64,000 nucleotides of DNA from Cladosporium halotolerans (GCF_011745625.1 NW_027191469.1:372001-436000); one strand, 5' to 3'; positions 10,301 through 40,083 are shown, numbered from the stretch's first letter. Numbers and translations: made by a program. Notes: generated from the sequence alone by a model not told the origin.

Positions 10301-11957
10301 GTGGCGTCACGTAACGGATTTCTTTGCCATTCGGGTTACGCTTGACAACACCGTCGACGACAGGCGACTTCCTCGTTTCGGCGTGGCAGTATTCGGTGCC
10401 AACAGTGTACGCTTTCACATCTTCGGCATTCTCTACCTTCAAGAATTGCTCGTAGATGTAAGAAACGCTTGGCTCCAGGATAGCGCGGGGAATTGTGAGG
10501 CTTTCGTCTTTCTCGGAGCTCTTGTTGTTGATCTTCCTGAAAAGTCTTCGTCCTCCGCCACCCTGCGACTTCGGGTAGTAGATGTTGATGTTGTGATCTT
10601 CACCACTAACAGGCTTCTCCACAAAGGGCTTGCTCAGGCGCTGCCCGTCGACAACCAGGGTATCGTCGTCGTCTTCCATGTGGACATCGGTCGGAGCCTC
10701 CTCGCCTCCGCCTCTTCCATCATCGGAGCCATCGAGCTTCAGCCCTGTGAGCGACTCGACCCTCTTAGCAATGTCCGTGCTCAGCAGGACGGGCCCGCCG
10801 TCGCGGTTGACTGCCAAACGTTTCGGGGACGGAACCTCCAACTTATCAAGGATCCTAAGACACATACGGCGGTCCCAAAGAACAGTCTGCATTGGCAGAT
10901 CGTTGACGCAGAAGGGGTGCCTTAGCTTGACATACGCAATTGCTTTCTCCAGGGGGAAGCCGTCGCTGAAGAAGCTGATAAGGAAATCGCACACTGGCCA
11001 ATTTTCCACATTCTCGTCCAAGATGACTTTGTCGCCGAAGATGATGACTTTGAAGTCGCCATCTTTACCGACAAGTCGATTCAAAATATTACGCGAAGGT
11101 TTTGAACGAGCTTTGGAATCAAGGGCGCAAATGCCGATCGTGCCGATGAAGTTGGGGGATTCGGAAATGGTGGAGCGATCCTGAGATGGCGATGCTGAGC
11201 CTGGAACACTATTTCCCATGCGTCCGGAGCCTGGCAGAGCGCGGCCGCGGACTGTACGACCTGATCTGGTGGCATTTGCGCCTGGTGATGAAGGGGAAGT
11301 AGAAGGCACATGAGCTGGCTGAGCCGTGAGAGATGGCTCTCGAAGCGAGCCATTGAGCGAAGGTGACAGAGTACCGCTCTGGCTTGATGTGCCAGAGACA
11401 TTGTGAACAGATGCCGGGGCAGGATCAACGTCGGAGTTGCCAGCAATCGAGCCTGGGGCGCTGCCGTAAGCCTGTTTTGCGGCTGTGTACAAGCCAGTTC
11501 CGTAATTGTAGAGCGACGAAAAGCTCATGCGATTAGAGTCGAGGTCCGGCTCCGGAGGTCGCATATGACCAGAAACCGCAGCATCTGGGAGACTTGCTGG
11601 GGCTGGCACATTTTCCTTCTGAGAGCCAGAGATGGTTGGCGTGCTCTCGCTGAGCGACGGGTCGTCGCCCACGCCGGGATCCGCAGTCATCTGCTTATCA
11701 TCGGACATGTTGCCGATGGATGACCAGCCTTCACTTCTTCTGCCTCTGGGAGGTGAGGGTTGGTTGAAGGCAGATTCCTGATTTGGATTTGGTGGTGGCG
11801 GCATGGCTAGACTCGTCGGGTCGGTCTGCCCGCCCGTAGTGTCCGCGGCGGGCACAGACTGTGACGACGATGTGGAGCGAGGGCTTGAGACTGTGTTCAG
11901 ACGAGTATTTCCATCACCCGCAATACCGTCCGCCCCATTGCCAGGCGTGGACGCCAT
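7307..11957 (-). CDS. VIP1: inositol hexakisphosphate / diphosphoinositol-pentakisphosphate kinase (Vip1/Asp1/PPIP5K)
   Basis: ATP-grasp kinase motifs (CDFLISFFSDGFPLEKAI, EDHNINIYY, HAETRKSPVVDG, DVNGWSFVK) and histidine phosphatase RHADRTPKQK. Intron 7825-7891 (GTAAGC..ACTAAC..TAG) joins to the last exon with YFTKESHIYTLLN. Confidence 0.96.
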
Positions 11958-12371
11958 AATGGGGTCTGCGAAGAGTGAAAGGTGCAGAAGAGAGGGTTGC
12001 TGGCTTGAGACTAGAATTCATCAATGCACTGATATAGTAGTGCATTCAGTTGGGACAACTGCAAAGGATAAGCTTCTTGCGAAACAAACATTGAGCCATG
12101 CAAATCTAATTGCTGCCGGCTTTATCAATGCATTTGGCGAAACCAAACTCCTTTCGATGACCTTTGTAACTATCAAAAATGCTTGCGAAGATTGATAAGA
12201 GGGCAGCGACACACAACTCTAAAGCAGGTACGTCAGGCGGCGTGAAGCGGCATGGTGGCCTCAGGCATCCACAAGCTCGCTTCGAGGCAAAATTTCCCGA
12301 ACCCTCAAAGAATTTGGATTTATGATCTGGGTTTCGATAACAGGGCATTCGCTTGTCGCCCGTGAGTCGCA

Positions 12372-15300
12372 ATGATGGAGAACGAGGGCCGAGTTGTCAA
12401 GCGCCAGAAGCTCAGCAATGGCGTTGTCGGCCGCCCGCAGCGTACGCCTGGCGCATCGAGAATCTTCGCGCCCTACCGAACTGTAGGTTTGGTGTCGCCC
12501 ACCAGCGTCCCGTTCACCAGCGTTCCTCTCGGCAAGACGACCTTCCAAATTACGACCTCTGTTGGCCGCAGCCTTCAGACGTACGACTTGCGCCGAGGCC
12601 TCAACCTTGTCTTCATTACTCGGCCTCAAACTCCCGAAGTGATCACCGCAAGCACAGCCTGGAAGGACAAAGTTTTCGCAGCATGGGGAGGCGAGGGAAA
12701 GAAGGCGGCGAGGGGCGTGTGGACGTTCAAGAGAGGCAAGAAAGAGGCGGAACTGGAATTGCCTAAGGGATTGACCGAGAACGTCAAGTCTTTCTACGTC
12801 TTTGGATCTTGGATTGTTGGCGTATGCGATAAGCGTCTTTTGGTCTGGAAAGCCTCGACTTACGAACTTTACACGGTACTACGAGGAATCTCTCCCGAGA
12901 GCTTCACTGGCTGCATCGCCAGTCTGCCCACGTTCCTCAACAAAGTCGTGGTAGGTCGTCAAGATGGCAGTGTTGAAATTTGGAACGTTTCGTCCGCGAA
13001 GATGGTGTACACGATCATGCCGCCGTCAGCTACATACGGTGCCGTCACTGCTCTCGAGCCGACGCCTGCGCTTGGTTTGGTCGCTATTGCTTATGAGCAA
13101 GGCCCTGTCCTCATTCACGACGTCAAAGCCGACCAGACTGTCATCGCTCTGAACGCTTCTTCTGGATTGGCGGTCACATCGATCTCTTTCCGCACTGACG
13201 GCATGGGAGCTGGCGACGACGGCAGGAAGTCAGGCGTTATGGCTACAGCATCCACACAGTCTGGCGACATCACTCTCTGGGACTTGAACAATGGTGGCAG
13301 GAAAGCTGGTACTCTACGCGCAGCGCACGCGAACCCAAGCCCGAACTACGGAGGCGGCGTCAGCAAGGTCGAATTCCTGGCTGGACAGGCGGTGATTGTG
13401 ACCAGTGGAATGGACAACAGTCTCAAGACGTGGGTCTTCGACGCAGTGCCTTTCAGCCCTATCCCGCGCATTTTGCACCAACGTCAAGGCCACGGCGCGC
13501 CTATCACGAAACTCGATTTCTTGCCTTCAGCCTCTGACGGTTCGGACGATACCAACAAGTGGCTCATGTCTGGTAGCAAGGACCGCAGCTTGTGGGGATG
13601 GTCTCTACGTCGCGATGGACAAAGCACGGAGCTTAGTCAGGGTGCGATTCAAAGCAAAGCGAAGAAGCAAGGTCTGCTTGCGACTGGAAACAGGGACAGT
13701 CTGGAAGACCTCAAATGCCCTCCAATTACGGCCATGGCTTGTAGCCTGAACAGAGACGGCGGTATCGGTGCCATTCCTGGAAAGCACCCGATCTGGCAGG
13801 GCGCCAAGGGAAAGAAGGTCGATGCGGAAGTGAGCGCGATGACTGGTTGGGAGAGCGTTGTCACTGCTCACGAGAACGACAAGAAGGCTCGCACCTGGTT
13901 CTGGGGGCGGAAGCGAGCAGGCAGATGGGCGTTTGACTCTGGCGATGGCGGCAACGTCAGTGCTGTTGCCATGTCTCCCTGTGGCACATTTGCTGTCGTA
14001 GGTAGCGAGACTGGCAGCGTAGACATGTACAACCTGCAGTCAGGTCAGCATCGACAACGCTTCCCTGCTCGGCTTACCCCAAACCAAGCGAAGCAGCTTC
14101 AAACAGATATGGAGAAGCAAGGTCTTTTGGAAGAGGGTGATGGCAAGAAAAAGTTCTTCCGAGGACAAGGCAGGCATGCCACTGCTGTTGTTGGTTTGGC
14201 CGTTGACAACCTCAATAAGACGGTTGTCTCTGCTGGTTCTGACGGGAAGGTGAAGTTCTGGGATTTCAGCAGTGGTCTTTTGGTGCACCAGATCGACTGG
14301 TCATTGTCATGTCGCATCGGCTCGATGCGCTACCACAGAGGAACCGATTTGATCGCCCTGGCTTGCACTGACGGATGTGTCCGTGTGGTGGACATCGCAA
14401 CACACAAGCTCATTCGTGAACTCTGGCCCTCGCGACCGGTGATTCCTGAGCTTTCTGGCCGAACTGTTTCAGACTACGTCTTCTCTAGCGATGGCAACTG
14501 GATTGCAGCTGCCATGGGTGAGCTGGTCTTGCTCTGGGACCTTCCCACAGGCCATCTTGTCGACGCTTTCAAGCTCACAGCGCCATGCACCAGCCTGGCA
14601 TTCTCGCCTACCGGCGAATATCTCGCTACTTCTACCTCCGACAGCGTTGGTGTTGACATCTGGACCAACAAGACGCTATTCACACACGTCCCTACCCGCC
14701 ACATTGGAGCCACAGACCTCACCGCCATCCTCGCAAGTGGCGCCCAAGCGCCTACTGCCAGTGGAGAGGGTGGTCAGAATCTCATCGCTGCCGACAACGC
14801 TGAGGAGTCTGAAGACGAAGACATCGTCGACGCTCTTTCGGATGAAGCTACTCTCGATGCACTCTCTTCCGATCTCCTCTCCCTGTCACTCGTACCGCGC
14901 TCGCGCTGGCAAAACCTGCTCCACCTCGATCTCATTCGCCAACGCAACAAGCCCACTGAGGCTCCCAAGAAGCCCGAGAAGGCGCCATTTTTCCTGCCTT
15001 CTTTGCAAGATCAGCAGAAGGGCATCACGACCTCTGCTCAGAAAGCCTCGGAGGAAGCTAATCTGGCCCAGATCGAGCAGGAGCGCAGCCGTGTGCTTAA
15101 AAATGCGCGCGCAGGTACTCGCAGCCAATTCACGTCGCTACTGCAGGCAGCGGACATGAGTCCTACGGCTGATTACGGCGCGTTCGTTGCGCATCTCAAG
15201 ACGCTCAACCCTGCTGCTGCAGACATCGAGATCCGATCGTTGAGTGTTTCTGGCAATGAGCTCTCACTCTTCGTGCAGGCACTTGTTTGGTTGATGGAGC

Positions 15301-15500
15301 AGAGGCGCGACTTCGAGCTCGGACAGGCGTGGATGGCGGTCTTCCTCCGCTGCCACGGCGACTTAGTAGCGAATGACGAGAGCCTAAGAGCCGCTGTCGG
15401 CGAGTGGCAAGAGGGTCTGAGGAGAGAGAAGGAGAGAGTCGTGAAGCTCAGCGGGTATGCTGCTGGTATGGTCGGTTGGCTTAGAGCGGCGAGGGTGTAG
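12372..15500 (+). CDS. UTP21: U3 snoRNA-associated WD40 protein Utp21 (WDR36)
   Basis: SRIFAPYRTVG N-terminus, many WD repeats, C-terminal RWQNLLHLDLIRQRNKPTEAPKKPEKAPFFLP and DFELGQAWMAVFL motifs. Confidence 0.95.
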   Translation: MMENEGRVVKRQKLSNGVVGRPQRTPGASRIFAPYRTVGLVSPTSVPFTSVPLGKTTFQITTSVGRSLQTYDLRRGLNLVFITRPQTPEVITASTAWKDKVFAAWGGEGKKAARGVWTFKRGKKEAELELPKGLTENVKSFYVFGSWIVGVCDKRLLVWKASTYELYTVLRGISPESFTGCIASLPTFLNKVVVGRQDGSVEIWNVSSAKMVYTIMPPSATYGAVTALEPTPALGLVAIAYEQGPVLIHDVKADQTVIALNASSGLAVTSISFRTDGMGAGDDGRKSGVMATASTQSGDITLWDLNNGGRKAGTLRAAHANPSPNYGGGVSKVEFLAGQAVIVTSGMDNSLKTWVFDAVPFSPIPRILHQRQGHGAPITKLDFLPSASDGSDDTNKWLMSGSKDRSLWGWSLRRDGQSTELSQGAIQSKAKKQGLLATGNRDSLEDLKCPPITAMACSLNRDGGIGAIPGKHPIWQGAKGKKVDAEVSAMTGWESVVTAHENDKKARTWFWGRKRAGRWAFDSGDGGNVSAVAMSPCGTFAVVGSETGSVDMYNLQSGQHRQRFPARLTPNQAKQLQTDMEKQGLLEEGDGKKKFFRGQGRHATAVVGLAVDNLNKTVVSAGSDGKVKFWDFSSGLLVHQIDWSLSCRIGSMRYHRGTDLIALACTDGCVRVVDIATHKLIRELWPSRPVIPELSGRTVSDYVFSSDGNWIAAAMGELVLLWDLPTGHLVDAFKLTAPCTSLAFSPTGEYLATSTSDSVGVDIWTNKTLFTHVPTRHIGATDLTAILASGAQAPTASGEGGQNLIAADNAEESEDEDIVDALSDEATLDALSSDLLSLSLVPRSRWQNLLHLDLIRQRNKPTEAPKKPEKAPFFLPSLQDQQKGITTSAQKASEEANLAQIEQERSRVLKNARAGTRSQFTSLLQAADMSPTADYGAFVAHLKTLNPAAADIEIRSLSVSGNELSLFVQALVWLMEQRRDFELGQAWMAVFLRCHGDLVANDESLRAAVGEWQEGLRREKERVVKLSGYAAGMVGWLRAARV

Positions 15501-21128: not shown

Positions 21129-22685
21129 CTAAACCACCCTACGGGTCAGTCTCCTGTTCTCTCTCTGTCGCTGCTGCTTCTTGGCCTCCTTTCTCTTCTT
21201 CTTCCACGCGCGATTGTTTTCGCCTCTGTGCTCATAGAACCACTTTCTGAAGTCGCTCTCGTCTTTGTGCTCCCCATCTGCAGTAGTGGTATTAGCACCA
21301 GCGTTGGTTGGTGCAGCATCCCGCATTTCTTCGTCCTCGTCTATATCACTCTGCTCGTGATCTTCGTCGTCCATGGCGAATCGAAACCTCTTTCCTAGTC
21401 CCGCTGTGTCTGGCGTGGGAGCTGCAGAGCGGAGAGCACGCCACTCCAAGTCCTGCTTGGTATGGGGAGTCTGAGGCGGGTGAGCAGGCACAGAGGCTAT
21501 TTCTTCTTCGTCCTCTTCGATATCGTCCGGGTTGAAGAAGCTGAAGGAGGTGTTGATGGGCGGAAGATTATGCTTTGCACCACCAGCCTCGGCTGTAGGA
21601 GCGCGCTTGTAGAGAGCCTCAAGCGGGTGGACTTCTCTTTCAGATTCAGGGACAGGAGTTGCAAGTTTCTCTTTCGTCACTTCATCTTCGGAGGGGGCCG
21701 CACCAGCTGCTGTCGTGGTCGATTGCTGCTTGTTTGGTTGCTCTTCTTCGTCACTGTCTTCATCGTCAGATGCCGAGGAAGCGCTTTCGCCAGCATCGTC
21801 TGAAGGAGGATCTTCGTCGTCTGATGAGACATCGGCTACGCTGTCTGCATCTTCCGGAACGTCCATCTCCATTGATTCCTGGGCTTGGCGGATCTCCTCT
21901 TGAGCCCGTCTTGCCTCCTCCGCGACACGGATTGCCTCATCTTTCGCTCTCTGTCTCCTCACAGAAAGTGGTTCGGCTTCAATAACCTCTCCGTCCTCAT
22001 TACACCAGCCCTTGCCTTCCACGTACTCCAATGCGCCCTTTGAATCGGTCTCAGCGGTGATGATGTACGGCTTCTTCTTGGTAAACTCCTCCACTACCTT
22101 GGGCGTTTTGTGGCTTTTCTTCTCACTGTCCTTGGAAGAGTCTTTCTTCGCTTTCTTGTCCTTCGACTTGCTCTTCTTCTTTTCATCTTCCAAAGGCATC
22201 GCGTTGGGCGGGACCATAGTCTTGAATCGCATCTTCTTCCCTTCCTTGGACTTCTTGTCCTTGCCTTCGCTCCATCCGCGCTTCACGTGTCTGCCCTCTT
22301 CAAGTTCATGCCCAGGAATTACGCCTTCCTCCCGCTTAGCCTTCTTCGCTTTCTTCGCCCTCTTCCTTTCCTTCCTCTCTTCCTCAGTCTCGTCCCTCTC
22401 AGCCTTGCGCTTCTTCTCGGGCCTAGCCTCCTCCACCCGCACTTTCGATCCCTTCAGAGTCGTCCCGTGCATTTTCTTTTTGAGCTTCTCGGCTTCCGCT
22501 TTCGGCAACTCAACGTATCCAAACCCGCGCTCCGGCTGAGTCTGGACGGCGTGGAAAGACACTCCAGTCGCAGCGGCTTTGGCTGACGCCGAGACGACGC
22601 GCTCGTACAGGTCCGGATTGAAAGGCGTGATGTGGAGGCGCACGCGATCAGAAGCGGTAGCGGCAGGCTGGGGAGCTGGTGGCAT
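21129..22685 (-). CDS. nucleolar RRM protein (Nop8/NOL8- or Srp40-like), K/E/D-rich
   Basis: N-terminal RRM (RLHITPF..RGFGYVEL..KGSKVRVEEARP), acidic and lysine tracts, C-terminal FRKWFYEHRGENNRAWKKKR. Likely start MPPAP at 22685. Confidence 0.8.
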   Translation of the reverse strand: MPPAPQPAATASDRVRLHITPFNPDLYERVVSASAKAAATGVSFHAVQTQPERGFGYVELPKAEAEKLKKKMHGTTLKGSKVRVEEARPEKKRKAERDETEEERKERKRAKKAKKAKREEGVIPGHELEEGRHVKRGWSEGKDKKSKEGKKMRFKTMVPPNAMPLEDEKKKSKSKDKKAKKDSSKDSEKKSHKTPKVVEEFTKKKPYIITAETDSKGALEYVEGKGWCNEDGEVIEAEPLSVRRQRAKDEAIRVAEEARRAQEEIRQAQESMEMDVPEDADSVADVSSDDEDPPSDDAGESASSASDDEDSDEEEQPNKQQSTTTAAGAAPSEDEVTKEKLATPVPESEREVHPLEALYKRAPTAEAGGAKHNLPPINTSFSFFNPDDIEEDEEEIASVPAHPPQTPHTKQDLEWRALRSAAPTPDTAGLGKRFRFAMDDEDHEQSDIDEDEEMRDAAPTNAGANTTTADGEHKDESDFRKWFYEHRGENNRAWKKKRKEAKKQQRQRENRRLTRRVV

Positions 22686-24514: not shown

Positions 24515-24854
24515 GACAACTCGAAGATGCAATGAAATCTTGCAATGTTGATTATTTTGGTCAATCAGAAAATATATCGCGTTGAAATCTTGCAATCCTT
24601 GAGTGCAGGTGCCGGGAGGTAGTCCGTTCCGCAAAGTGATTGCTGCCACTCCTAGGCGTTCGCCGATGTTGTGAAGCGCATCTCGGGGGTCCAAAATGCC
24701 AAGGCCGGCCAGAGGCAGGAAGCATCATCGGCGAAACTTTAGGAGGGACAGAGACAGCCAGGGCGTGCCATTGGAGGCCGTGAGAATCCATGACCAGCAA
24801 CACCGGCATCCTGACCTATACATATCCCAGGGAGCGACATCCGAAATAATCATC

Positions 24855-25661
24855 ATGCCGCGCTCACCATCAGATGCAACGCGCTTCACCTCCAACGGCC
24901 CTCCAAACGCAGCGCCCTCAGTAAATTCCGCCGGCTCGAGAATCAACTTCGGCGAGGCACCTCCGAACGAAACCGCACAGCAAAAGATCGCCCGTCTGCG
25001 CGCGGCGGCGGCCAACTCAAAGCGTGGGAAAGAAACTGGTTTCGATACTGTCGTACGAGTCGGCAGAGTATGGGCTGACCGCGCTCACAAGGCGACGGCC
25101 TTCGGCCTGATCGGGTTGACGATCGTGGCAGGTGTCGTGGCGACGGCGGGTATCACAGACATGTTGATGCACAACCGAAGAAGAAGGAATGAGTGGTTGG
25201 CCGAGAAGCGGGCGCAGAGTGCGGCCGAGCTGCTGGAAGCGAGGAGGGCACAGAGCGTTGGCACTGTCACTGAGGACCAGATGCTTTTGATCAATAGGGA
25301 GCGCGTGAGGGAGGAGGCGGAAGCAGAGAAGAAGAACCAGCCTGGCATGTTCAAGCGTGCTGGAAGTTATCTGTTTGGTGGGCTGGAGAAGGAAGAGCAG
25401 AAGGGCGGCAAGCTTGGTGCGGCGGCGGCGAAGGCAGGAGAAGCAGTGCAGCCTGTGAAGGAGCAACTCTTGGGCCAAAATGAGGATCCTGGTGTGCTGA
25501 AGTCCGTGGAGCAGAAAATTGAATCGAACAGGAGGCAGGGTGAACACATTGAGGAAATGATCAAGCCTCTAGGTGGACCTCTGGACCGACAAGCAGAATC
25601 AGCGGTCCAAGCAGCCACGAGCAGTGGGAAGAGCTGGACCAGCTGGCTTACCGGCCGATGA
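24855..25661 (+). CDS. cytochrome c oxidase assembly (COX14-like domain) protein
   Basis: MPRSPSDATRF start; GRVWADRAHKATAFGLIGLT TM segment followed by HNRRRRNEWL, as in filamentous-fungal COX14-domain proteins. Confidence 0.7.
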   Translation: MPRSPSDATRFTSNGPPNAAPSVNSAGSRINFGEAPPNETAQQKIARLRAAAANSKRGKETGFDTVVRVGRVWADRAHKATAFGLIGLTIVAGVVATAGITDMLMHNRRRRNEWLAEKRAQSAAELLEARRAQSVGTVTEDQMLLINRERVREEAEAEKKNQPGMFKRAGSYLFGGLEKEEQKGGKLGAAAAKAGEAVQPVKEQLLGQNEDPGVLKSVEQKIESNRRQGEHIEEMIKPLGGPLDRQAESAVQAATSSGKSWTSWLTGR

Positions 25662-26258: not shown

Positions 26259-28605
26259 ATGCCGACACAAACAATGGCCGGCCAAAGGTTTGCCATGATT
26301 CTCGTGAATATTACTCTCATAGTGGGACTCGTGTGCTTACTTGCTTCCCTATCACACCTTCTCTTGTCCAGTGGCAATCATGGCGTCTCTACGAAGATTT
26401 CGGTGCGCAGCACTGAGATCAACGAAACTGCCAGACTGGATTTCTTCGAGGCTCATAGCGACAGATTGAGTCTTACTGGCATAGCGAAGCGAGCGCTCAT
26501 TGCCCGCGATGGTACTGATTCAGAAGAAGACTCCGAAAGCTCTCAAGATGAGAAAATGCCTGATGCTCCGCCAGCGACTCCAGCAGGGCAGGGCAAAGAC
26601 ACCAAAAGCTCATCAGACGTGGAAATGCCCGACGCTCCTCAAGCGACTCCTCCAGGACAGGGCAATGCGCCCTCTTCTAGTGCTCCGAACCCCTCAGGAC
26701 AGCCTGGCTGGGTCAACCCCTTCGGACCTTTCCAGGGGGGCCCTCCGTCGGCCCTTGGAGTACCTTATGGGCAGCAGCGGGCCCCTCCTGGTTCGATTCC
26801 CGCGGGTCACCAACAAGGCTCCTATCGCTCGATGGAGAATCCCCAGCAGATCCCAGATTATTCCTTTTCCGGAGACCCAGGTCCCTCTTTTGATGACGGT
26901 TACACGGGTCCTCGTTTGCCATCTGAACTGGGTCTCACTGGACACCAAATACCTCCCTACGGTTACAATGATCCAAGGCTTCAGGCAGTGGCTCCCAACT
27001 TTCAATCGATTGCTGCTTCTGCGAGGCCTCTTGTTTATAATCCACAGCCTTTCATGGTAGGCTACCATTCCTGGTGTCACGCGGATCCCATGAATCAAGG
27101 GGCGCCTACTGGAGCTCAGCCAATGCCTGCGTATCCACCGCCCCAAGGCCGGGGAGTTCCTCATATGGCATCGGGAGCGCCTCCTGGAACCCAGCCCATG
27201 CCCGCATATCCACCACCTCAAGGGCGGGGAGTCCCCCATATGGCATCGGGAGCGCCTCCCGGGGCTCAACCAATGCCTGCACATCCACCGCCCCAAGCCC
27301 AGATAATCCCTCCCACCGTAGTAGGAGCTCCACCGCAAGCGGTCGCCATCGGCCAGAATGTACCTGCCAGCCCTCCCGCATCCTGGGTTCAGCTTGTCTT
27401 CCTGACCTGGAAGACGTATATCCCACTGATGTATGCAGACATCCAGGCAGCGAATCAAGCAATGACGGATCTCAAAAGGAGAAATGCCCCTCCTGGTGGT
27501 TGGCAAAAAGATAACTTGATGTGGTACCACACTGTTGAGTTAATGCGCAACAACCCTCACAAATCATACAAGTGGCGACAAGTACTTTGGGTTCAGTCGC
27601 AACCGCCTGGCGTTAGTTTGAGACCAGTCCAAGCTGCGCTCTCAAGGCTACGCCTACCGAATACAAACCAGCAGATCCATGTTCAGTCTTCGCTTGCTTC
27701 CCCAAAGATTTTGTGGCAGCAACAGCACCAATGGACCCTTCGGGTCAGTCCACAGCAGTTCGTAAGTTGATTTGAGAATTCAAAGGCCAGAGCCCCTGTG
27801 TTCCGGCGACATTATGCTGACATTTCCTTTCCAGCCGCCCACATATGCCAATCATCTTTTGGCATACGACCACGACAACGGAATAATTATTGTTTGTGAA
27901 AGACAAAGCATGAATCATATTGCCAATGGAATGCCACAGATAAAAGGCTTCATGGCCCAACATAGCTATGCGGGAAGGATCGATGATTGGCTTCCCCCCG
28001 CGTGGGATGAAGCAGTGCTCATTGCTTACGACTGGGAGCGTTTGCGCTTGGAAAAGTACCCCCAAGGTTCCGAACTACGCCAGCCTTTCTCTGAAGTTGC
28101 TCCGCTGCACTATATTGTGTTCCAATCGGTCCAACTCAGTGAAGATTCTCTTGGGGTTATCAAAGCGCTGCTCGAAAGTGCGTGTGGAAAAAACCAGAAC
28201 ACTATTCTCGCTGGGCCCCAAGGTGCCGTCTTTCGAATTGGGGACTATCAACACAGTGCGATTCTTGCCCTACCAGAGTTCGACTGGTTGATGCGGCTGC
28301 TGGTTGATCGAAAGACACAATTTGGCAGGAAGGTCTTATCAGAAGTTAGGATGTTCATTGGCGAAGGCGACAACGGAGACACGCCTAGCTTCATCTGGAC
28401 TCTCAGACAATCTGTTGACGTTAGTCTCAACGATGCTGCAATGCGGCATTACATGTTCATGAAAACGGCTCTGGAGAAGAAGATCGTTGACCAGGATACT
28501 TTTAATCAAGACCCAACGATGATGAGCATCTACAGAGAGGAACAAAAATTTATCAGGGAAGGCGGTCAAGCGTTTGATGGAATTCCACTTCCTGGAGTAG
28601 ATTGA
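26259..28605 (+). CDS. secreted or membrane-anchored hypothetical protein with Pro-rich tandem repeats and a globular C-terminal domain, spliced
   Basis: Hydrophobic N-terminus and a KR site. Phase-0 intron 27762-27834 (GTAAGT..GCTGAC..CAG) fuses the 503-aa and 277-aa ORFs (PQQF-PPTYAN). Confidence 0.75.
27100..27300 (+). repeat. 75-bp (25-aa) coding tandem repeat, ~2.7 copies
   Basis: GAP[TP]G[AT]QPMPA[YH]PPPQGRGVPHMAS repeated, with synonymous differences between copies. Confidence 0.9.
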
Positions 28606-31541
28606 CGGGCGGCATTCGGGAAATGATTGTGATTCTGGGGGGTTTTAGAGGCTTGATCTGCTTTCTCATGTACTATTTCAACATCAAACTCTCCCTTCTT
28701 CCTCCATCTCAAAATCTAAGAATCCGGTGCTGTACTCTCCTACATGTGTGCAAGCATGAATTGCCACTGGGAGAGACAGTTTTGGTGGGCTCGGAAAAGA
28801 GCATATAATCTCCCATCTCTCCGCTTTGCGAACCTCAACATAAGTGCTGCCTTCTCCTCGCAACTTGCAGCCTGGGAAAAACAACGTCATCAGACTTTCA
28901 CATGCGCATCAAAGCTTCTGCAGCTCCGATTTGAAAATTCAAAATGAGGTGCTACCTTCTCCTTCCGCACTCTGAACGCGCATTTTGGTTGGGAGAGACG
29001 AGCCGTCGCGAGTTCGGAACAAGCATGAAATACGCTTTCTCTAATTGAGCTGAGTCGAAGCCAGCATTCTCCGTCAAGCCTCTAGGGATAGACTTGGCTC
29101 TGGCAAAGCTGGTAGATTTGGTGTCTCTGAGTCCGTCTTGAGAACGAACATCTGGAAGCTCTGACGATCTCCTCTTTCCCTGTCCGAACATGCCTTACGA
29201 AACAGCCTGTTATCTTCTTCACTGTCTTGATGAGAAGAATTTCGTCCGCAGAGCCGACAGTCCCTGAGCCTTGATTGTAAATGAAAACAAAGGCTCGAAA
29301 ACGCCGTCACACTTTCTTTTCTCCAACTCGTAATCAAACCGTCAGCGGTATCATGCTACCTCCTACACTTGATGCCTCGCGATAGATTTCCATTGGCCAA
29401 ACAGAGACGTCAGGCTTCATATTGCACGAAATAAAGTTGTGTACCAGTTCCTGATCAAGGCGGGACAGCTGCCGATGACACACAGAATACCATGTGATTT
29501 GGTGATCAATGACTGCAAGCCCTCTGCCAGACTATTAGACAGGCTCGTTGCAACGCTAACGGATGTCTGCAGCGGCAAGTAAAGGCATCCGATATTTCAT
29601 TACTTGCGTGTCCCGAAAGCACGACCGAAGGTCTTTCTGTCAATCTTTTGGCGAACACAATCAGGCAGAGCTTGATCAACCTCGATTTCCGAGCGCGAAA
29701 CACTTGGACTCTATACAAGCGATACCCACGAGGTGGGTGACGAGCGAACTTCTTTGTAGTCCGTTGCCGTAGCACATGGCTCTCGGAGTTAGTAAACAGT
29801 ATGTTACGTTTGTCTCCAAAAAAAGTCTCATCATTCGGTTGATGAAAGCTCATGGCCCTCGGACTGCCTACGAGGATCTGTAGGTGGGCGTGGAAGAGTA
29901 CAGACTAGCCGCCACTTGTCTTCGTACGTCACAGGCAGGCGGCATTCCGCTCAAATATGCTCGTAGAAGACACGCAGATGATTGTGCACAACAGTTACAA
30001 AACTAACGTTTGGTCGCAGACCCCACTACTTATGGTCAAAGAGCTCTCATCGTTGGATGGGTAGTTTATTTTCGCAATTACCTATACAGCTCATTGGGAG
30101 GGCAGATCGGTGATGAAAGTATGAGGCCAACCGTTTATCTATGCATCAGTCTCCGCACCCCCAAACCGGAGCATGTTATGGTCTGTTAGGCTGGTCTGAA
30201 GGGATGGTTGATGACAGCAAGCCATGGTCGGTCACTCCGGTGCTGACAGTTCTGGGCTTAGCAGTGTGTCGTAATGGAGTTCTGCATGGGTCACGAATCC
30301 GACTTTTATGTGCTTGGTAGTGCGTGTGATGCCTCTAAACCCCCACGTAAAGTCGAATTCGACCATACATAAACTTGCATACCAGACCGTACAACAGAAT
30401 TGCCAACAGCCGCTAGCGTGGCAACCAGCCCGTACAATGGCAGCGTAAGAAAAGTACCAAGCGTGAATCTGATCTGGAGTACCAATGAAGATCTTACGGT
30501 CATCCGAGGTGAGGCAGAAACTGAGGGGTGCCCGGTGTCCTCTCATTTCGTCTCTCACTTCACAAACCATTGAAGTCAGGGATGATGCAATCGACAACTC
30601 ATACACACATACAGTTGACATCGGCGACAACGAAAAATGATCTGTCGGTGTCTTCTGTTGCACATCTCGCACTGAAATCCTGTTCCATAGCCACCAGAAA
30701 TTCTGTTGAATTACTTCCTCCCGCGATGTTCGCGCGCTTCGACACTTCTTAACTGGATCCGGGTTTCGGCGATACGCCGGTCGCTGAACACGCCTGATCT
30801 CAAAAAGGTCTCTCGAATCAGATGTGATCTAGGATTGTAATTCTAAGCAAAGGAGTGGATTGGGTCACCTTGCTTGCACAGCTCATTGCTTATGCGGCCG
30901 CTCAGCCTTGGAATACATTCACAAGGCAGCTGAGCTGACACACAGCTCTATGCGGGGTAGCAACATGCGGAGTAGTCGTGGCTCGGAACTGATGAATACT
31001 GTATAGTAGTTCTAGCGTTGAGGCCGATCAAGTCAGCTGCGATAGGGTCTATGCCGTCGTGCCTACGCCAGTCCATTTAAACAGAACATTTTGCAGACAA
31101 GCTCGACATAAGCCAGACAGCAAAGGTGAATTCATGGAACCTTAGTAAGTTTGGATATCTTCTGCCATTAATCAGCCTGACAGTAGACTCGGCATGTGAG
31201 CAAGCGCTGAACTCTCCAATGTTGTTTGCGCGAGCATCCTGGCCCCTACCCCTAGAGCATCACCAGTATTGCCGAGATGCACGCTGTGGCTGTTCGCTAA
31301 AGCGAGAAAAGTCAATACAGCTGTGTACCTTTGGTAGCTCTGATAGTTGGACATCGTCTATTGGAGCTCATGACATGGATAGAATTTACGTTTGATGCAA
31401 CCCTGGGTGTGTGAGGGACGCGAATTGCATTCGCAAGGCGGTTTGACCGATCGATCCGATCACTCCTCTTACCTCCAACCTACCAATACCTGGTGAGCTA
31501 TACTAAATGTGTAGCACGTAGCTGTCTGCGTCCGTGAATGC

Positions 31542-32927
31542 ATGATCTCCTGTCCCGCAACTCCGCTTACTGTTTTCATGGGGCAAAACGAACGTTCGAT
31601 CAAGACAAGAGTACTGCGAGACATGGCATCTACCAGACGAAGATTGTTGCCAGTCTTCTCTTTCATGCGCTTCATCAGTTGGCTAGTACCTTGGTCTTGG
31701 ATTCGTGATCCACGGGGCTACAGTCAGGGCCCAAAGGAGACCTCCACCCACCTAGAATCCGCGGCGTTGGACGAACAGACTGACGGGTATCTATCAGTGA
31801 GCAACGATGATCTGGAATATCTTACTCGAGGAGAGGCTGAGCAAATCATTGAACGGTTCAAGGAGATACCGCAAAGCTATGACAGATTGTTATTCTGGAC
31901 CGGCATTCCCAGAGAATGGGTCCAGCAATGGGCAGATGATCATGGCATGTTGACATTTACTTCGGCGATGGGCTACTTGATGGACCGTACGGACCCACGG
32001 TGTTTGAAGAGGGTTAAAAAGCTAAAACAATGGAGCAAGTATGTCAGAGGTGCATCTGGAATCTTTGCACGTTTTGCCTGCGGGCGTGGTATCATCAGAG
32101 TGTTGACGTTACCTCCTTCTTGGGCAGGATTCATTCGACCCCAGTCGACATATCGCACCATAGAGGAGCCTGTACTGAAAGGAACATCGGGATGCTGCTG
32201 TGCTGTGCAAATCAATACAGTGCATCTTTTGACAACGCTGGAGCAGCTAGAATATCAGACCTGGCCGGAGAATCACATACCAGAGGGGCTCAGATCTCCG
32301 GGAACAGGATCTTTCGACTTCAGAATTCCAAGATGGATTCGAAAAGCTGTGAAGGCTGCCACCGAGAGCTTGCGATCCAACGTTGTGAGGTTTACAGCTT
32401 TTCCAACTCCCAAGCCGGCCAATGCCAATATTGTGTCGGGCGGATCAGTCAGAAAGACTAGCGAAACACAGTCAGCTAAGCAACCGAAGGATGGCAAGCA
32501 ATCAGCGAGCAAGCCCAATGCACAAGGTAGTCTACAGCTGCAGAGCCAGCAACCACAGAGCAAGATACAGCAGCCGCTGAACCAGCAATCGTCGAGCAAA
32601 ACGCAGGAGCCGCGAAACCAGCAGCCGAAGAGCAAGAAGCAGTCGCAGAGTTCGCAGGTGCAGCGGCACTCGCAGAGTCAACAGCCGCAGAGCACAAAGC
32701 AACCACCACAGAGCAAGAAGCAACAGCCGCAAAACCAACAGCCGCAAAACCAACAGCCGCAAAACCAACAGCCGCAAAACCAACAGCCGCAAAACCATCA
32801 GCCGCAAACCCAACGGCCGCAAACCCCACGGCCGCAGAGCACAAAGCAACTACCACCGGCGAAGAAGCAAAAGCCGCAAAATCAACAGCCACAGAGCAAG
32901 AAGCAGCAGTCACAGAACCAGCGGTAA
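31542..32927 (+). CDS. putative ADP-ribosyl cyclase (CD38/ARC)-like domain protein with a Gln-rich repeat tail
   Basis: 461-aa ORF. The motifs LLFWTG, MLTFTSAMGYLMD, ASGIFARFAC, IIRVL and STYRTIE occur in the same order as CD38 motifs. C-terminus is Q/P/S/K/N repeats. Start codon uncertain; function inferred by eye. Confidence 0.65.
   Translation: MISCPATPLTVFMGQNERSIKTRVLRDMASTRRRLLPVFSFMRFISWLVPWSWIRDPRGYSQGPKETSTHLESAALDEQTDGYLSVSNDDLEYLTRGEAEQIIERFKEIPQSYDRLLFWTGIPREWVQQWADDHGMLTFTSAMGYLMDRTDPRCLKRVKKLKQWSKYVRGASGIFARFACGRGIIRVLTLPPSWAGFIRPQSTYRTIEEPVLKGTSGCCCAVQINTVHLLTTLEQLEYQTWPENHIPEGLRSPGTGSFDFRIPRWIRKAVKAATESLRSNVVRFTAFPTPKPANANIVSGGSVRKTSETQSAKQPKDGKQSASKPNAQGSLQLQSQQPQSKIQQPLNQQSSSKTQEPRNQQPKSKKQSQSSQVQRHSQSQQPQSTKQPPQSKKQQPQNQQPQNQQPQNQQPQNQQPQNHQPQTQRPQTPRPQSTKQLPPAKKQKPQNQQPQSKKQQSQNQR
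32721..32840 (+). repeat. 15-bp coding minisatellite (CAACAGCCGCAAAAC, QQPQN)
   Basis: Five perfect copies at 32721-32795, then three variants. Confidence 0.95.
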
Positions 32928-33345
32928 TCGAGTAGTACGACACAGCAGTCGCAAAGCCGACAGCTGCAGAGTAAGAAACAGCAGTCACAGAGCCAGCTAC
33001 CGCAGCCGCAGAGCAGGAAACAACCATCACGGAGCACCGGGTTTTGACCATTGAGCAGCAGACAGCCTCAACAGAGTGAACAGCAACAAAGCAGTAAGAA
33101 ATTGAGTTTCAAAGTCATAGAATAGCTGGAGAAGGAACCAAAGATGTATTTGCACCCAGGGAGGATCGGTAGGTGAGTCGTCAAAGCGAGTCGTTTATGG
33201 AGAAGCAGATATTGGCAGAAAGGCAATCTCACGCCCACCCCCCCGAGTCAACCGACCCACCAATCCCACGCCAGCACCGACCCTCCCGCCGCACGACTTG
33301 CCTGCCCCACACCAAGCGCCTCTTCTCGCACCACCACCCCAAACC

Positions 33346-34389
33346 ATGCCGTCCGACCATCACAACAACAACCACCACCACCACCACCACCACCACCACC
33401 ACCACCACACCTCCCGCTCCACGCGCCGCTCGCGCTCGCGCTCACCCCGCGACCGCCACCGCGACCACGATGTGAAACCCCGGCACCGCTCGCGCTCCCC
33501 GCGCGACCGCGAACGACGACACCACAACTCCCACCACCACACCTCCTCCTCCTCCAAAACCCACCAACCCGCCCTCCCCTTCTCCCAGTCCCCCCTCCGC
33601 CGCCACCACCTCCCGCGCTACCGCGCCCTCTTCGCCTCCTACCTCGAGCTGCAAAAGAACCTCGACATCTACACGCTAAGCGAGACAGAACTCAAAGGCC
33701 GCTGGAAGAGCTTCGTCGGCAAGTGGAACCGCGGCGAGCTGGCGGAGGGGTGGTACGAGCCTGGGACGAAAGAGCGCGCGGACGAGCGCGCGCGGGAATT
33801 CGAGCCTGTCGAGAGGGAGGCTGCGCCGGAGAGGAGGGTAGAGGCTGCGCCTGCAGAGGAAGACGAAGACGAGGACGACGAGGACGGTTTCGGCCCCGCG
33901 CTGCCGGCTGGCCAGAGGACGGGGCCTTCGGCGCCCACGAGGCAGGATCTGCGAGAGAGGGAGGAGGCGGCTGGGGAGGAGCGGGCGGCGGCTAGGGCGG
34001 ATGTGCGATTTGAGCGGAAAGCTGACCGACGGGCGCAGAGAGAGCGGTTGGAGGAGCTGGTGCCGAGGGCGGAGCCGGGGTCGCGGGAGAGGCAGCTGGA
34101 GAAGAAGCGGGATGCTGCGGCGGCGAATAGGGCGTTTGCGGAGGGGAGGGAGGCGGGCGGGGCGGCGGAGGTGCCGGAGGCGGATGTCATGGGGGGTGGG
34201 GATGGGGTTGAGGAGTATAAGAAGCAGGTGGGCGAGAGGCAGAGGGCGAAGAATGAGCGGGAGGTGAGGAAGGAGGAGCAGTTGAGGGCGAGGGAGGTGG
34301 AGAGGGAGGAGAGGTTGGCGGAGCATAGGAGGAAGGAGGATAAGACGATGGAGATGTTGAGGGCGTTGGCGCAGCAGAGGTATGGGTGA
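33346..34389 (+). CDS. conserved fungal RS/His-rich, charged nuclear protein (possibly splicing-associated)
   Basis: RSRSP repeats and poly-His, conserved-looking WKSFVGKWNRGELAEGWY and ERLEELVPRAEPGSRERQLEKK, ending LRALAQQRYG. Likely ATG at 33346. Confidence 0.85.
   Translation: MPSDHHNNNHHHHHHHHHHHHTSRSTRRSRSRSPRDRHRDHDVKPRHRSRSPRDRERRHHNSHHHTSSSSKTHQPALPFSQSPLRRHHLPRYRALFASYLELQKNLDIYTLSETELKGRWKSFVGKWNRGELAEGWYEPGTKERADERAREFEPVEREAAPERRVEAAPAEEDEDEDDEDGFGPALPAGQRTGPSAPTRQDLREREEAAGEERAAARADVRFERKADRRAQRERLEELVPRAEPGSRERQLEKKRDAAAANRAFAEGREAGGAAEVPEADVMGGGDGVEEYKKQVGERQRAKNEREVRKEEQLRAREVEREERLAEHRRKEDKTMEMLRALAQQRYG
33371..33408 (+). repeat. (CAC)n microsatellite encoding poly-His
   Basis: About 12 CAC units seen directly. 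Confidence 0.9.
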
Positions 34390-37974: not shown

Positions 37975-40083
37975 ATGAACTCGCTCCGCCTCCGCGACTT
38001 CAATCCTCTGCGATTACTCCACACAAACTTCTCCTACCAGTCACTACCCAACAGCGAGAGCCGGAGCGCCTCGCCCTCAGGGTCCTATCGCCGGCGATGG
38101 CTCCCTGACAAGCTCAGGTTCGGCCGCCTGTCGCTCACAAAGCTGCTCGCGCTGGCCATAGCGGGCTTCGTGTGCCTTGCTTTGATGGCCGGCGGAGGCT
38201 ACAGACAAGTCCGGGAAGAAGTCCAGAACCAGGAGCCTGCAGAGCAGCCGCCTCCTTTTTACTGGCAGGTCTTTCCCCGATTGAACGGCTACTACAACGG
38301 CATCCGGACCCTGGTGCCCTACAAGGACGTCCAGCAGGAGAACAGATACAATGCGTCGGAACCGCCCAAATACGAGAAGCCCAGAGACCTGCCCAAGCAG
38401 CCTCCCATGGAGCCGATCAAATACGACCCATACCCCGACTACAAGTCCAGCGAATACCTGGAGAAGCACCACGAAGTCCACGAGTGCTTCGTGGACGACG
38501 AAGACACCATTCCCGTCCCCGACGTGTACGCCTACCCCGGTGTTCCTGCCGTCTACCCTGAGCCTTTCTACGGCTCCTACTCTGCTCTCGGCATGCGCGA
38601 GGACGTCTGCTGGGACAGATTCGGCCGTCTCGCCGCTTACGGCTACGGAGACTCCAAGGGCACCAATCACGGCCTCGGCATGAAGTCTGAGAAGACTGGT
38701 GCTCACAAGATCTTCGAGAAGGTCGGCCACACCGATTACAGCAAGGTCGACTGGGGCAAGGCGCAGAAGAAATGCTACGAGAAGAACAAGGCCAGATTCG
38801 CCCAAGAGCAACCCGAAGGCAAGGAGCGCGTGAAGCGCCACGCCTACGTCTTGAGAACCTGGACCGGCTTCAAGTACACCGACCACCACATCATGACCCT
38901 GCGCGCCCAGATCAACGAGCTCGCGCTCAAGAGCGGCGGCGAGTACGACGTGCACTTCCTCGTCCACGTCAAGGACGACAGCATCCCCATCTGGGCCGAC
39001 GAGGACATCTACCGCCAGGTGATCGAGGAGAACGTCCCCGAAGAGTTCTGGGGCCTCGCGACCCTCTGGTCCGAGAAGCAGATGGAGATGTACTACCCGG
39101 ACCCCTTCCCCAACAACTTCATCAACATGGCCGGCTCCTCCATCCACGGCGTCTACCGCTCCGCCCACTTCGCCATCCAGTGGTTCAGCCAGGAATTCAA
39201 AGAATACGACTTCGTCTGGAACTGGGAGATGGACCTCCGCTACACCGGCCACTACTACGAGTTCAACAACCGCATCGGCGAATGGGGCAAGGCCCAGCCC
39301 CGCAAGGGTCTCTGGGAGCGTGCCGAGCGCTTCTACATCCCCGGCATCCACGGCAGCTACGAGAACTTCACCAAGTTCGTCGGCGAAGAGATGAAGACCC
39401 GCGACATCCCGCTCAACGACCCCGTCGCCCAAGGCCCACACCCCGTCTGGGGCCCCGTCAACACCTTCCCGAACAACGGCCTCCTCCCCGCCCCCGAAGG
39501 CACCACCCCGCCCCACTCGTACTCCCGCGACAACTACGAATGGGGCGTCGGCGAAGACGCCGACATCCTCACCTTCAACCCCATCTTCGACCCCTCCAAG
39601 ACAAACTGGGTCTTCCGCGAAGACGTCACCGGCTACGACAACACGCTGCCCGTCCCGCCCCGCCGCGTCGCCATCATCACTGTCGCCCGCCTCTCCCGCC
39701 GCCTGCTCGACACCATGCACGAGGAAACCTGGGCCATGCGCCACAGCATGTTCCCGGAGATGTGGCCGCCCAGCGTGGCCCTACACCACGGCCTCAAAGC
39801 CGCTTACGTCCCGCACCCGGTCTACTTCGACCGCGACTGGGACCTCCCCTACATGGACCAGGTCTTCAACTACCCGGAGACGAAAGAGGCGAGCACGTTC
39901 GGCTGGGGCGAGCATAACATGCTGGGGAGCAGCTTCTACTACAATGCTGGTTTCAGCGGCGCGCTGTGGAGAAGGTGGCTGGGCGAGGCGGAGAACGGGG
40001 AGGGTGGCAGGCGCGAGGAGGAGAGCGGCACGGGCAGGATGTGTTTGAGGCCGGTGCTGCATCATCCTATTAAGGGCGAGTGA
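37975..40083 (+). CDS. DUF3405 family type II membrane protein
   Basis: N-terminal TM helix; motifs VLRTWTG, ELALKSGGEYDVHFLVHVK, YDFVWNWEMDLRYTGHYY, ARLSRRLL, EMWPPSVALHHGLKA, CLRPVLHHPIK. Strong C-ending codon bias. Confidence 0.88.
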   Translation: MNSLRLRDFNPLRLLHTNFSYQSLPNSESRSASPSGSYRRRWLPDKLRFGRLSLTKLLALAIAGFVCLALMAGGGYRQVREEVQNQEPAEQPPPFYWQVFPRLNGYYNGIRTLVPYKDVQQENRYNASEPPKYEKPRDLPKQPPMEPIKYDPYPDYKSSEYLEKHHEVHECFVDDEDTIPVPDVYAYPGVPAVYPEPFYGSYSALGMREDVCWDRFGRLAAYGYGDSKGTNHGLGMKSEKTGAHKIFEKVGHTDYSKVDWGKAQKKCYEKNKARFAQEQPEGKERVKRHAYVLRTWTGFKYTDHHIMTLRAQINELALKSGGEYDVHFLVHVKDDSIPIWADEDIYRQVIEENVPEEFWGLATLWSEKQMEMYYPDPFPNNFINMAGSSIHGVYRSAHFAIQWFSQEFKEYDFVWNWEMDLRYTGHYYEFNNRIGEWGKAQPRKGLWERAERFYIPGIHGSYENFTKFVGEEMKTRDIPLNDPVAQGPHPVWGPVNTFPNNGLLPAPEGTTPPHSYSRDNYEWGVGEDADILTFNPIFDPSKTNWVFREDVTGYDNTLPVPPRRVAIITVARLSRRLLDTMHEETWAMRHSMFPEMWPPSVALHHGLKAAYVPHPVYFDRDWDLPYMDQVFNYPETKEASTFGWGEHNMLGSSFYYNAGFSGALWRRWLGEAENGEGGRREEESGTGRMCLRPVLHHPIKGE

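Follow-up and report, generated by a model that had tools for sequence, protein, structure and literature searches.

The window analysed here is a 64,000-nucleotide stretch of the Cladosporium halotolerans genome (GCF_011745625.1, NW_027191469.1:372001-436000). An intron-less open reading frame (ORF) in this window almost certainly encodes a homologue of the ADP-ribosyl cyclase (ARC) superfamily, to which CD38 and the bacterial Tox-ARC toxins belong. The protein consists of three parts: an N-terminal stretch of 81 residues, in which nothing recognisable was seen, a conserved core of about 165-180 residues, and a tail of 198 residues. A first-pass annotation of the same DNA had placed a CD38-like domain at positions 31884-32230, which correspond to residues 115-229 of the ORF. 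The five motifs that it quoted, LLFWT, MLTFTSAMGYLMD, YVRGASGIFARFAC, IIRVL and PQSTYRTIE, are all present in the translation, and the codon that it gave for Glu-208 is indeed a Glu codon. The features of the locus are collected in Table 1.

Table 1. Features of the ORF and its surroundings, with positions counted from the first nucleotide of the window and residue counts taken over 75 relatives
Feature	Position	Strand	Remarks
Whole ORF	31542..32927	+	461 aa, intron-less; M1 (MISCPAT...) kept in paralogous copies
ARC-like (CD38/Tox-ARC-fold) domain	31785..32330	+	aa 82-263; four beta-strands, five main helices
W119 (TGG), first active-site Trp equivalent	31896..31898	+	W in 74/75; pairs with the Trp of the toxins' FWSG
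T140, second-Glu position (CD38 E146, Tac1 E516, ARCtox E299)	31959..31961	+	not acidic
V168, second active-site Trp position (ARCtox W323)	32043..32045	+	aliphatic throughout the family
S172, Ser of the W-x3-S helix motif	32055..32057	+	S in 74/75; aligned with the Ser of the toxins
E208 (GAG), predicted catalytic Glu	32163..32165	+	E in 74/75; pairs with the Glu of the toxins' W-H-N-x-E
H228, family-specific, near-invariant	32223..32225	+	H in 74/75
C-terminal low-complexity tail	32331..32924	+	aa 264-461; mostly Gln, Pro, Ser, Lys; isoelectric point 12.0
15-bp tandem repeat	32721..32836	+	7.7 copies, QQPQN units, within the tail
89-nt skipped stretch in the catalytic core	32039..32127	+	one contig, run X3 (kind guessed to be RNA), depth 2.78
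Conserved upstream stretch, about 390 nt	31155..31541	+	common to dispersed copies; long invariant blocks

Fold and homology of the conserved core

The core was modelled with AlphaFold2 from residues 82-263 and a 75-sequence alignment. The model has a mean predicted local distance difference test (pLDDT) score of 90 and a predicted template modelling (pTM) score of 0.87, and it shows the two-lobed alpha/beta fold of the ARC superfamily, with a four-stranded sheet and a helical cap. A Foldseek search of the PDB with this model gave three matches at E ≤0.001, all of them bacterial ARC toxins (9ro8_A, 4.8e-5; 9ouf, 1.8e-4; 9ro8_B, 6.3e-4). The nearest known structures are thus PANA_2924 ARCtox from Pantoea ananatis (9ro8) and Tac1 from Streptococcus parasanguinis (9ouf). 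The remaining matches listed, at ranks 4 to 50, are CD38, CD157 and the Vibrio RDTND NADase, and the structural alignment to CD38 is confined to CD38 residues 101-282. A structure prediction followed by a fold search was the check that the first-pass annotation had proposed for its CD38/ARC-like assignment, and the assignment passed it.

A set of bacterial ARC domains was assembled for comparison of the sequences. When 401 genomes from one bacterial order were searched with PF02267 (Rib_hydrolayse; gathering cut-off, 25 bits), a single good locus, L082, was obtained, and its domain recruited 48 relatives. Four of these have a precomputed PF02267 label, and the bacterial ARC relative P0251 scores 26.4 bits against this family. 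Two other leads were dropped: L083, an MnmC-like protein of 670 residues, was a false PF02267 match, and L084 (211 residues) gave E = 0.59 against the fungal profile. Directly downstream of L082:1312-3273 (-), in the position of an immunity gene, there is a 203-residue ORF without a Pfam match (L082:699-1310, minus strand).

The profile of 75 fungal cores was then aligned by hhalign with that of 48 bacterial ARC toxin domains, which tests the pairings with CD38 indirectly. The probability was 97.2% with E = 8.4e-11 over 165 columns in global mode, and 96.5% with E = 8.9e-10 in local mode, while for the controls, two reversed and 20 column-shuffled, E was 0.023-0.87 and the probability ≤2.1%. 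The relation to the bacterial Tox-ARC toxins that the annotation had drawn is borne out by this comparison. Furthermore, two fungal relatives match PF02267 weakly and colinearly with the hhalign register: residues 43-102 of P0166 align with profile positions 50-109 (E = 0.097), and residues 74-134 of P0098, the best relative, with positions 118-176 (14.5 bits, E = 0.023). Because of the difference between the hhalign result and its controls, the fold searches and these colinear weak matches, the resemblance to ARC proteins is far beyond chance, and we consider the fold assignment solid.

Simpler sequence searches did not find this relationship. A Pfam scan of the whole ORF found no domain, giving only noise matches to SpoVAD and TFIIA, and the window protein has no Pfam domain outside the core. 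Searching the PDB with the window protein by phmmer gave lipases at E ≥0.67 and nothing from the ARC superfamily. The 75-sequence profile picked up low-complexity proteins through their tails and no ARC protein, and a scan of NCBIfam gave nothing relevant. The ESM Atlas returned unnamed clusters, plus a DNA_methylase lead at 21% that was set aside.

Active-site residues of the fungal family

The hhalign register places the fungal core on the active site of the toxins, and the pairings with CD38 in the first-pass annotation fall in the same register. LLFW119TG pairs with AVFWSG of the toxins. Trp-119 is followed by Thr-120, where T or S is found in 72 of the 75 relatives, and by Gly-121. In the fungal relative P0166 as in the bacterial P0251, the first Trp lies at about position 71 of the PF02267 profile. 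The segment T138-F-(gap)-T140 pairs with T-L-E-T of the toxins when the 75 and 48 sequences are compared, and Thr-140 falls directly on the toxin Glu when the single L082 sequence is used (E = 8.6e-5, 47 columns). Val-168 pairs with the second Trp of the toxins and Ser-172 with the Ser of W-x3-S. Finally, S-T-Y-R-T-I-E208 pairs with T-I-W-H-N-K-E, which puts Glu-208 at the position of CD38 E226, Tac1 E573 and ARCtox E356. CD38 E226 is named in the titles of PDB entries; for the other paired residues of CD38, we take the numbers to be W125, W189 and S193. Glu-208 is followed by Glu-209 (E in 61 of the 75) and Pro-210. Thus, the annotation was right to place Glu-208 at the catalytic position, and this residue is kept across the family, which is the outcome of the conservation check that the annotation had set.

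Two positions of the active site differ from those of CD38 and the toxins, as had also been claimed, and they do so in every relative. Position 140 is T in 61 sequences, S in 8, A in 3, and V, K and I in one each, and no D or E is found at positions 139-142 in any of the 75. This is the position of the second Glu, named as E146 of CD38 in PMC12356396. Position 168 is I in 28, V in 27, M in 19 and L in one, and is aromatic in none. Trp-164 (70/75) and Tyr-167 (73/75) stand beside Val-168, on the same helix as Ser-172. The residue set of the fungal family is W-T-V-E, whereas that of CD38 and the toxins is W-E-W-E.

Besides His-228, the residues conserved specifically in the fungal family are Tyr-238 (73/75), Trp-241 (73/75), Pro-242 (74/75) and Glu-98 (70/75). 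The window protein itself deviates from its relatives at some near-invariant sites, having F in place of L at 139 (F in 2/75), Y in place of P at 145 (P in 61/75) and G in place of W at 249 (W in 68/75).

Family, dispersed copies and setting of the gene

A word-indexed search found 88 relatives at E ≤0.001 among 510 candidates, with Cladosporium sp. NU13 and Cladosporium fusiforme among those that are named. An exhaustive HMMER search of representative clusters at 50% identity found 279 at E ≤0.001, of which 207 are at ≤1e-10. Exact look-up of 20 relatives gave names for seven, two of which are merely "hypothetical protein"; the others are from Colletotrichum simmondsii, Colletotrichum fructicola, Colletotrichum incanum, Hirsutella minnesotensis and a Chaetothyriales species. 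Since there are named members from Cladosporium, Colletotrichum, Hirsutella and the Chaetothyriales, the family spans three classes of Pezizomycotina, the Dothideomycetes, Sordariomycetes and Eurotiomycetes. A Pfam scan of 75 members at E ≤0.01 found eight families, none of which is ARC or informative about the core and each of which is limited to a single member; C2H2 zinc fingers were seen in one. For 18 longer relatives (462-2000 residues) there are no precomputed Pfam domains at all, which argues weakly against fused forms.

Fourteen related loci (L085-L098) were found in three metagenome assemblies, ten of them in one assembly. The similarity of their DNA to the window is limited to the gene unit, from roughly 31150 to 32790. 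The domain is open in eight of the 11 copies examined; L092 and L093 have one in-frame stop each, and L096 is frameshifted with four stops. In L091 and L094, Cys replaces Ser-172. The ratio of nonsynonymous to synonymous divergence (dN/dS) of the core against seven intact related copies is 0.14-0.24 at dS of 0.56-0.70, which indicates purifying selection on the core. The flanks of the copies are of different kinds: a gene of the NOD-like receptor (NLR) type, with NB-ARC plus TPR, and an OrsD-domain protein (L092:1-2597), ankyrin repeats (L096:2551-3219), a PDDEXK_12 nuclease and an APH-type kinase (L087:578-3626), a kinase-like ORF (L098:3061-3726), and an amine oxidase and a PIG-V mannosyltransferase (L090:3272-7776). 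Because the copies sit in unrelated contexts and three of the 11 are broken, the gene family itself looks accessory in its behaviour.

The surroundings of the ORF in the window are of another kind. The first-pass annotation had spoken of an accessory island, and this is not supported for the window. Its neighbourhood genes (7842-15500, 24696-25661 and 37975-40083) encode a PPIP5K/Vip1-type kinase-phosphatase, Utp21, a COX14-domain protein and a DUF3405 protein, and no Pfam match was obtained for the ORFs at 21129-22685, 26259-27770 and 27814-28605. No recognisable immunity gene is adjacent, the neighbours being ordinary fungal genes or without Pfam matches, and the 3 kb upstream of the ORF contain no notable ORF. 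Repeat-induced point mutation (RIP) and an AT-rich island were both considered and rejected, with TpA/ApT of 0.40-0.93 and no index in the RIP range. A tblastn search within the window found no second copy. Thus, the window is not an obvious accessory island. Downstream, an ORF at 33346-34389 (plus strand, 347 residues) begins with a His run and an Arg/Ser-rich stretch, followed by a Glu/Arg/Lys-rich part, and no Pfam match at E ≤0.001.

The similarity among dispersed copies includes the conserved stretch upstream of the ORF, which is seen in L085, L086, L090, L097, L092 and L089. It ends sharply at about 31155 in the four loci that reach further upstream, and at about 31183 in L092 and L089. 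This stretch has a raw divergence of about 21-30%, lower than the ORF's synonymous divergence. It is probably the promoter and 5' untranslated region of the gene, and it could also be the edge of the duplicated unit.

For most of the ORF there are contigs from three sequencing runs of a kind guessed as RNA; gaps in this cover carry no meaning. The only run recorded as RNA, X14, has one identical contig of 231 nt, which is no proof of transcription. Taken together, these contigs are suggestive of transcription of the ORF. One contig from run X3 joins position 32038 to 32128, leaving out 89 nt, while the contigs of X1 and X4 are unskipped. The stretch left out has the features of an intron, namely GT..AG ends with GTATGT at the 5' site, a branch-like TTGAC and a pyrimidine tract. 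It also encodes Tyr-167 to Ala-195, including Ser-172, and skipping it shifts the frame and leads to a stop after 11 codons. Its 3' half hardly differs in 10 of 10 related copies, even at many synonymous sites, and the strong 5' site GTATGT is present in three of 11 sequences, those of the window, L087 and L089.

In a hydrophobicity scan of the window protein, the highest mean over 19 residues on the Kyte-Doolittle scale is 1.18. This value belongs to the hydrophobic segment LPVFSFMRFISWLVPWSWI (residues 36-54), which was considered as a membrane anchor and rejected as too low. Many relatives begin right at the core. Metazoan CD38-type enzymes carry conserved disulfides; cysteines in the fungal family are not conserved as pairs, with Cys-154 in 56 of the 75 relatives and Cys-180 in 20. 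Because the N-terminus lacks strong hydrophobicity, relatives start at the core and Cys pairs are not conserved, the window protein is best read as intracellular and non-secreted. The tails of the relatives are K/Q-rich as well, yet they differ from that of the window protein. One speculative role of the basic, disordered tail would be to direct the protein to the nucleus or nucleic acid. Besides the 15-bp repeat, the tail has looser repeats of 21, 27 and 36 bp. An antisense ORF at 32476..33051 (minus strand, 191 residues) consists of Ala/Val/Ser/Gly repeats; it mirrors the CAG/CAA-rich repeat of the tail and is not regarded as a gene.

Proposed activity and alternatives

We infer that the window protein is probably an intracellular enzyme of the ARC superfamily, acting on nicotinamide adenine dinucleotide, NAD(P)+, as a cyclase or glycohydrolase by means of Glu-208. 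In the proposed mechanism, NAD+ or NADP+ would occupy the cleft that separates the helical cap from the four-stranded sheet, Glu-208 would promote the departure of nicotinamide, and the ADP-ribosyl intermediate would then be cyclised or hydrolysed. Because the second Glu, which drives hydrolysis of the cyclic intermediate in CD38 and Tac1, is Thr in the fungal protein, cyclic ADP-ribose (cADPR) would be released as a substantial product, as it is by Nac1. A bias towards cyclisation is a more tentative prediction, to which we give somewhat less than an even chance. Turnover would be slower than that of the toxins, and tolerable inside the cell, because the second Trp position is aliphatic. The basic Gln/Pro/Ser/Lys tail would probably set localisation or partners, which again is speculative.

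The precedents for these predictions come from the bacterial enzymes. In Tac1, only substitution of the catalytic Glu abolished activity, and most variants were still toxic (PMC12356396). The second Glu, equivalent to CD38 Glu-146, promotes hydrolysis of the cyclic intermediate, and the variant with Ala at this position releases cADPR (PMC12356396). Nac1 from Actinophytocola oryzae is a natural ARC protein that is not a toxin; it has Ala at the second-Glu site, forms cADPR and ADP-ribose in about equal amounts, and needs no immunity protein for its purification (PMC12356396). By its description there, Nac1 resembles the fungal protein in not belonging to a toxin system and in having a small non-acidic residue in place of the second Glu. 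It differs in having a predicted signal peptide and Ala, whereas the fungal protein has Thr and no strongly hydrophobic N-terminus. By these precedents, the fungal family appears to keep the sole indispensable residue and to lack the one that destroys cADPR, with a weakened site for nucleotide stacking.

In bacterial polymorphic toxin systems, the toxin starts with a trafficking or secretion module and an immunity gene lies beside its gene; the fungal protein is the product of a eukaryotic stand-alone gene, has no PAAR, LXG or Rhs trafficking domain and no recognisable immunity gene beside it, lacks the second Glu and second Trp, and has a 198-residue basic disordered tail. The metazoan enzymes CD38, CD157/BST-1 and Aplysia cyclase (PF02267) are ectoenzymes of about 250 residues with a larger N-terminal lobe of seven helices (PMC12356396). 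Compared with these membrane-anchored or secreted proteins, the fungal domain aligns to the core only, below the PF02267 cut-off, and neither an anchor nor the extended helical lobe was found. The fungal NADases studied so far, surface enzymes of the TNT type from Aspergillus fumigatus and Neurospora crassa, also cleave NAD(P)+, but they are not relatives, being of unrelated fold and mechanism, secreted, glycosylated and without cyclase activity (PMC7955114).

That fungi have ARC domains is already known from a computational survey of 2012. A table in Zhang et al. lists Tox-ARC in ascomycete and basidiomycete fungi, and these authors proposed that the fungal forms were acquired from bacterial toxins independently of animals (PMC3482391). 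The fungal model is nearer to the bacterial structures than to CD38, which fits this proposal. The Tox-ARC signature given there is [ST], [DE], S and E (PMC3482391), whereas the family of the window protein, which may be among the fungal forms listed, lacks the [DE]. What is new is a divergent fungal ARC branch, unannotated in Pfam, whose active site is modified, whose setting is probably intracellular and whose tail is basic and disordered.

Several observations weigh against an active ARC enzyme. Two of the four residues called key are absent from the fungal family. In the Pantoea ARC toxin, alanine at any of the four ended toxicity (PMC12605009), and in Tac1 every substitution in the cleft profoundly cut hydrolysis (PMC12356396). 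The window protein has no PF02267 match, sub-threshold matches were obtained for just 2/18 and 1/75 relatives, and a profile of 18 relatives gave no matches to PDB sequences at E up to 10. One transcript-like contig lacks a stretch of the catalytic core, and three of 11 metagenomic copies are broken. Full-text literature searches found no activity data and no characterised fungal ARC member; fungi are absent from the texts published on bacterial ARC toxins in 2025.

Some of these observations would be explained if the protein were a pseudoenzyme of ARC fold, which would bind nucleotides or serve as a scaffold but no longer turn over NAD+. The second Glu and second Trp, each needed for toxicity in Pantoea (PMC12605009), are missing in all 75 relatives, and the decay of some copies (3/11) would fit as well. 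We regard this explanation as unlikely, since 74 of the 75 relatives retain the catalytic Glu, the one residue that Tac1 cannot do without, along with Trp-119 and Ser-172, Nac1 is active without the second Glu, and the core has dN/dS of 0.14-0.24. It is improbable that the protein, while sharing the fold, acts as an N-glycosidase or transferase on another substrate, such as NAD-capped RNA or a different nucleotide, in which case the basic tail would bind nucleic acid. A chance or generic Rossmann-like resemblance, with an ORF unrelated to ARC proteins, can be dismissed as highly improbable, because the top fold matches are exclusively ARC and well above the remainder, the hhalign E of 8.4e-11 compares with at least 0.023 in 22 controls, and the five motifs are colinear on matching elements of secondary structure.

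The reading that we prefer, an intracellular NAD(P)+ cyclase or glycohydrolase, can be extended to the family as a whole, in a scenario that we consider rather unlikely as it stands. The genes would form a large, dispersed birth-and-death family of filamentous ascomycetes, whose intracellular ARC enzymes arose from NAD-depleting toxins of bacteria by a rewiring towards cADPR production. In that case they would be the first candidates for cADPR synthases in fungi. They could serve in signalling or in regulated NAD-based cell death or defence, and in at least some copies "exitron" splicing within the catalytic core would gate their output.

Animal ARC enzymes make the calcium messengers cADPR and NAADP (nicotinic acid adenine dinucleotide phosphate). 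ARC enzymes were shown in 2025 to be widespread NAD-depleting toxins of bacteria. The fungal family is large, with its 279 clusters, was missed by Pfam, and includes plant-associated genera. Since the indispensable Glu is kept and the Glu that destroys cADPR is absent, the family leads to a concrete and cheaply testable prediction, the release of cADPR. If this is true, one could ask whether fungi use nucleotide second messengers or NAD-based self-destruction.
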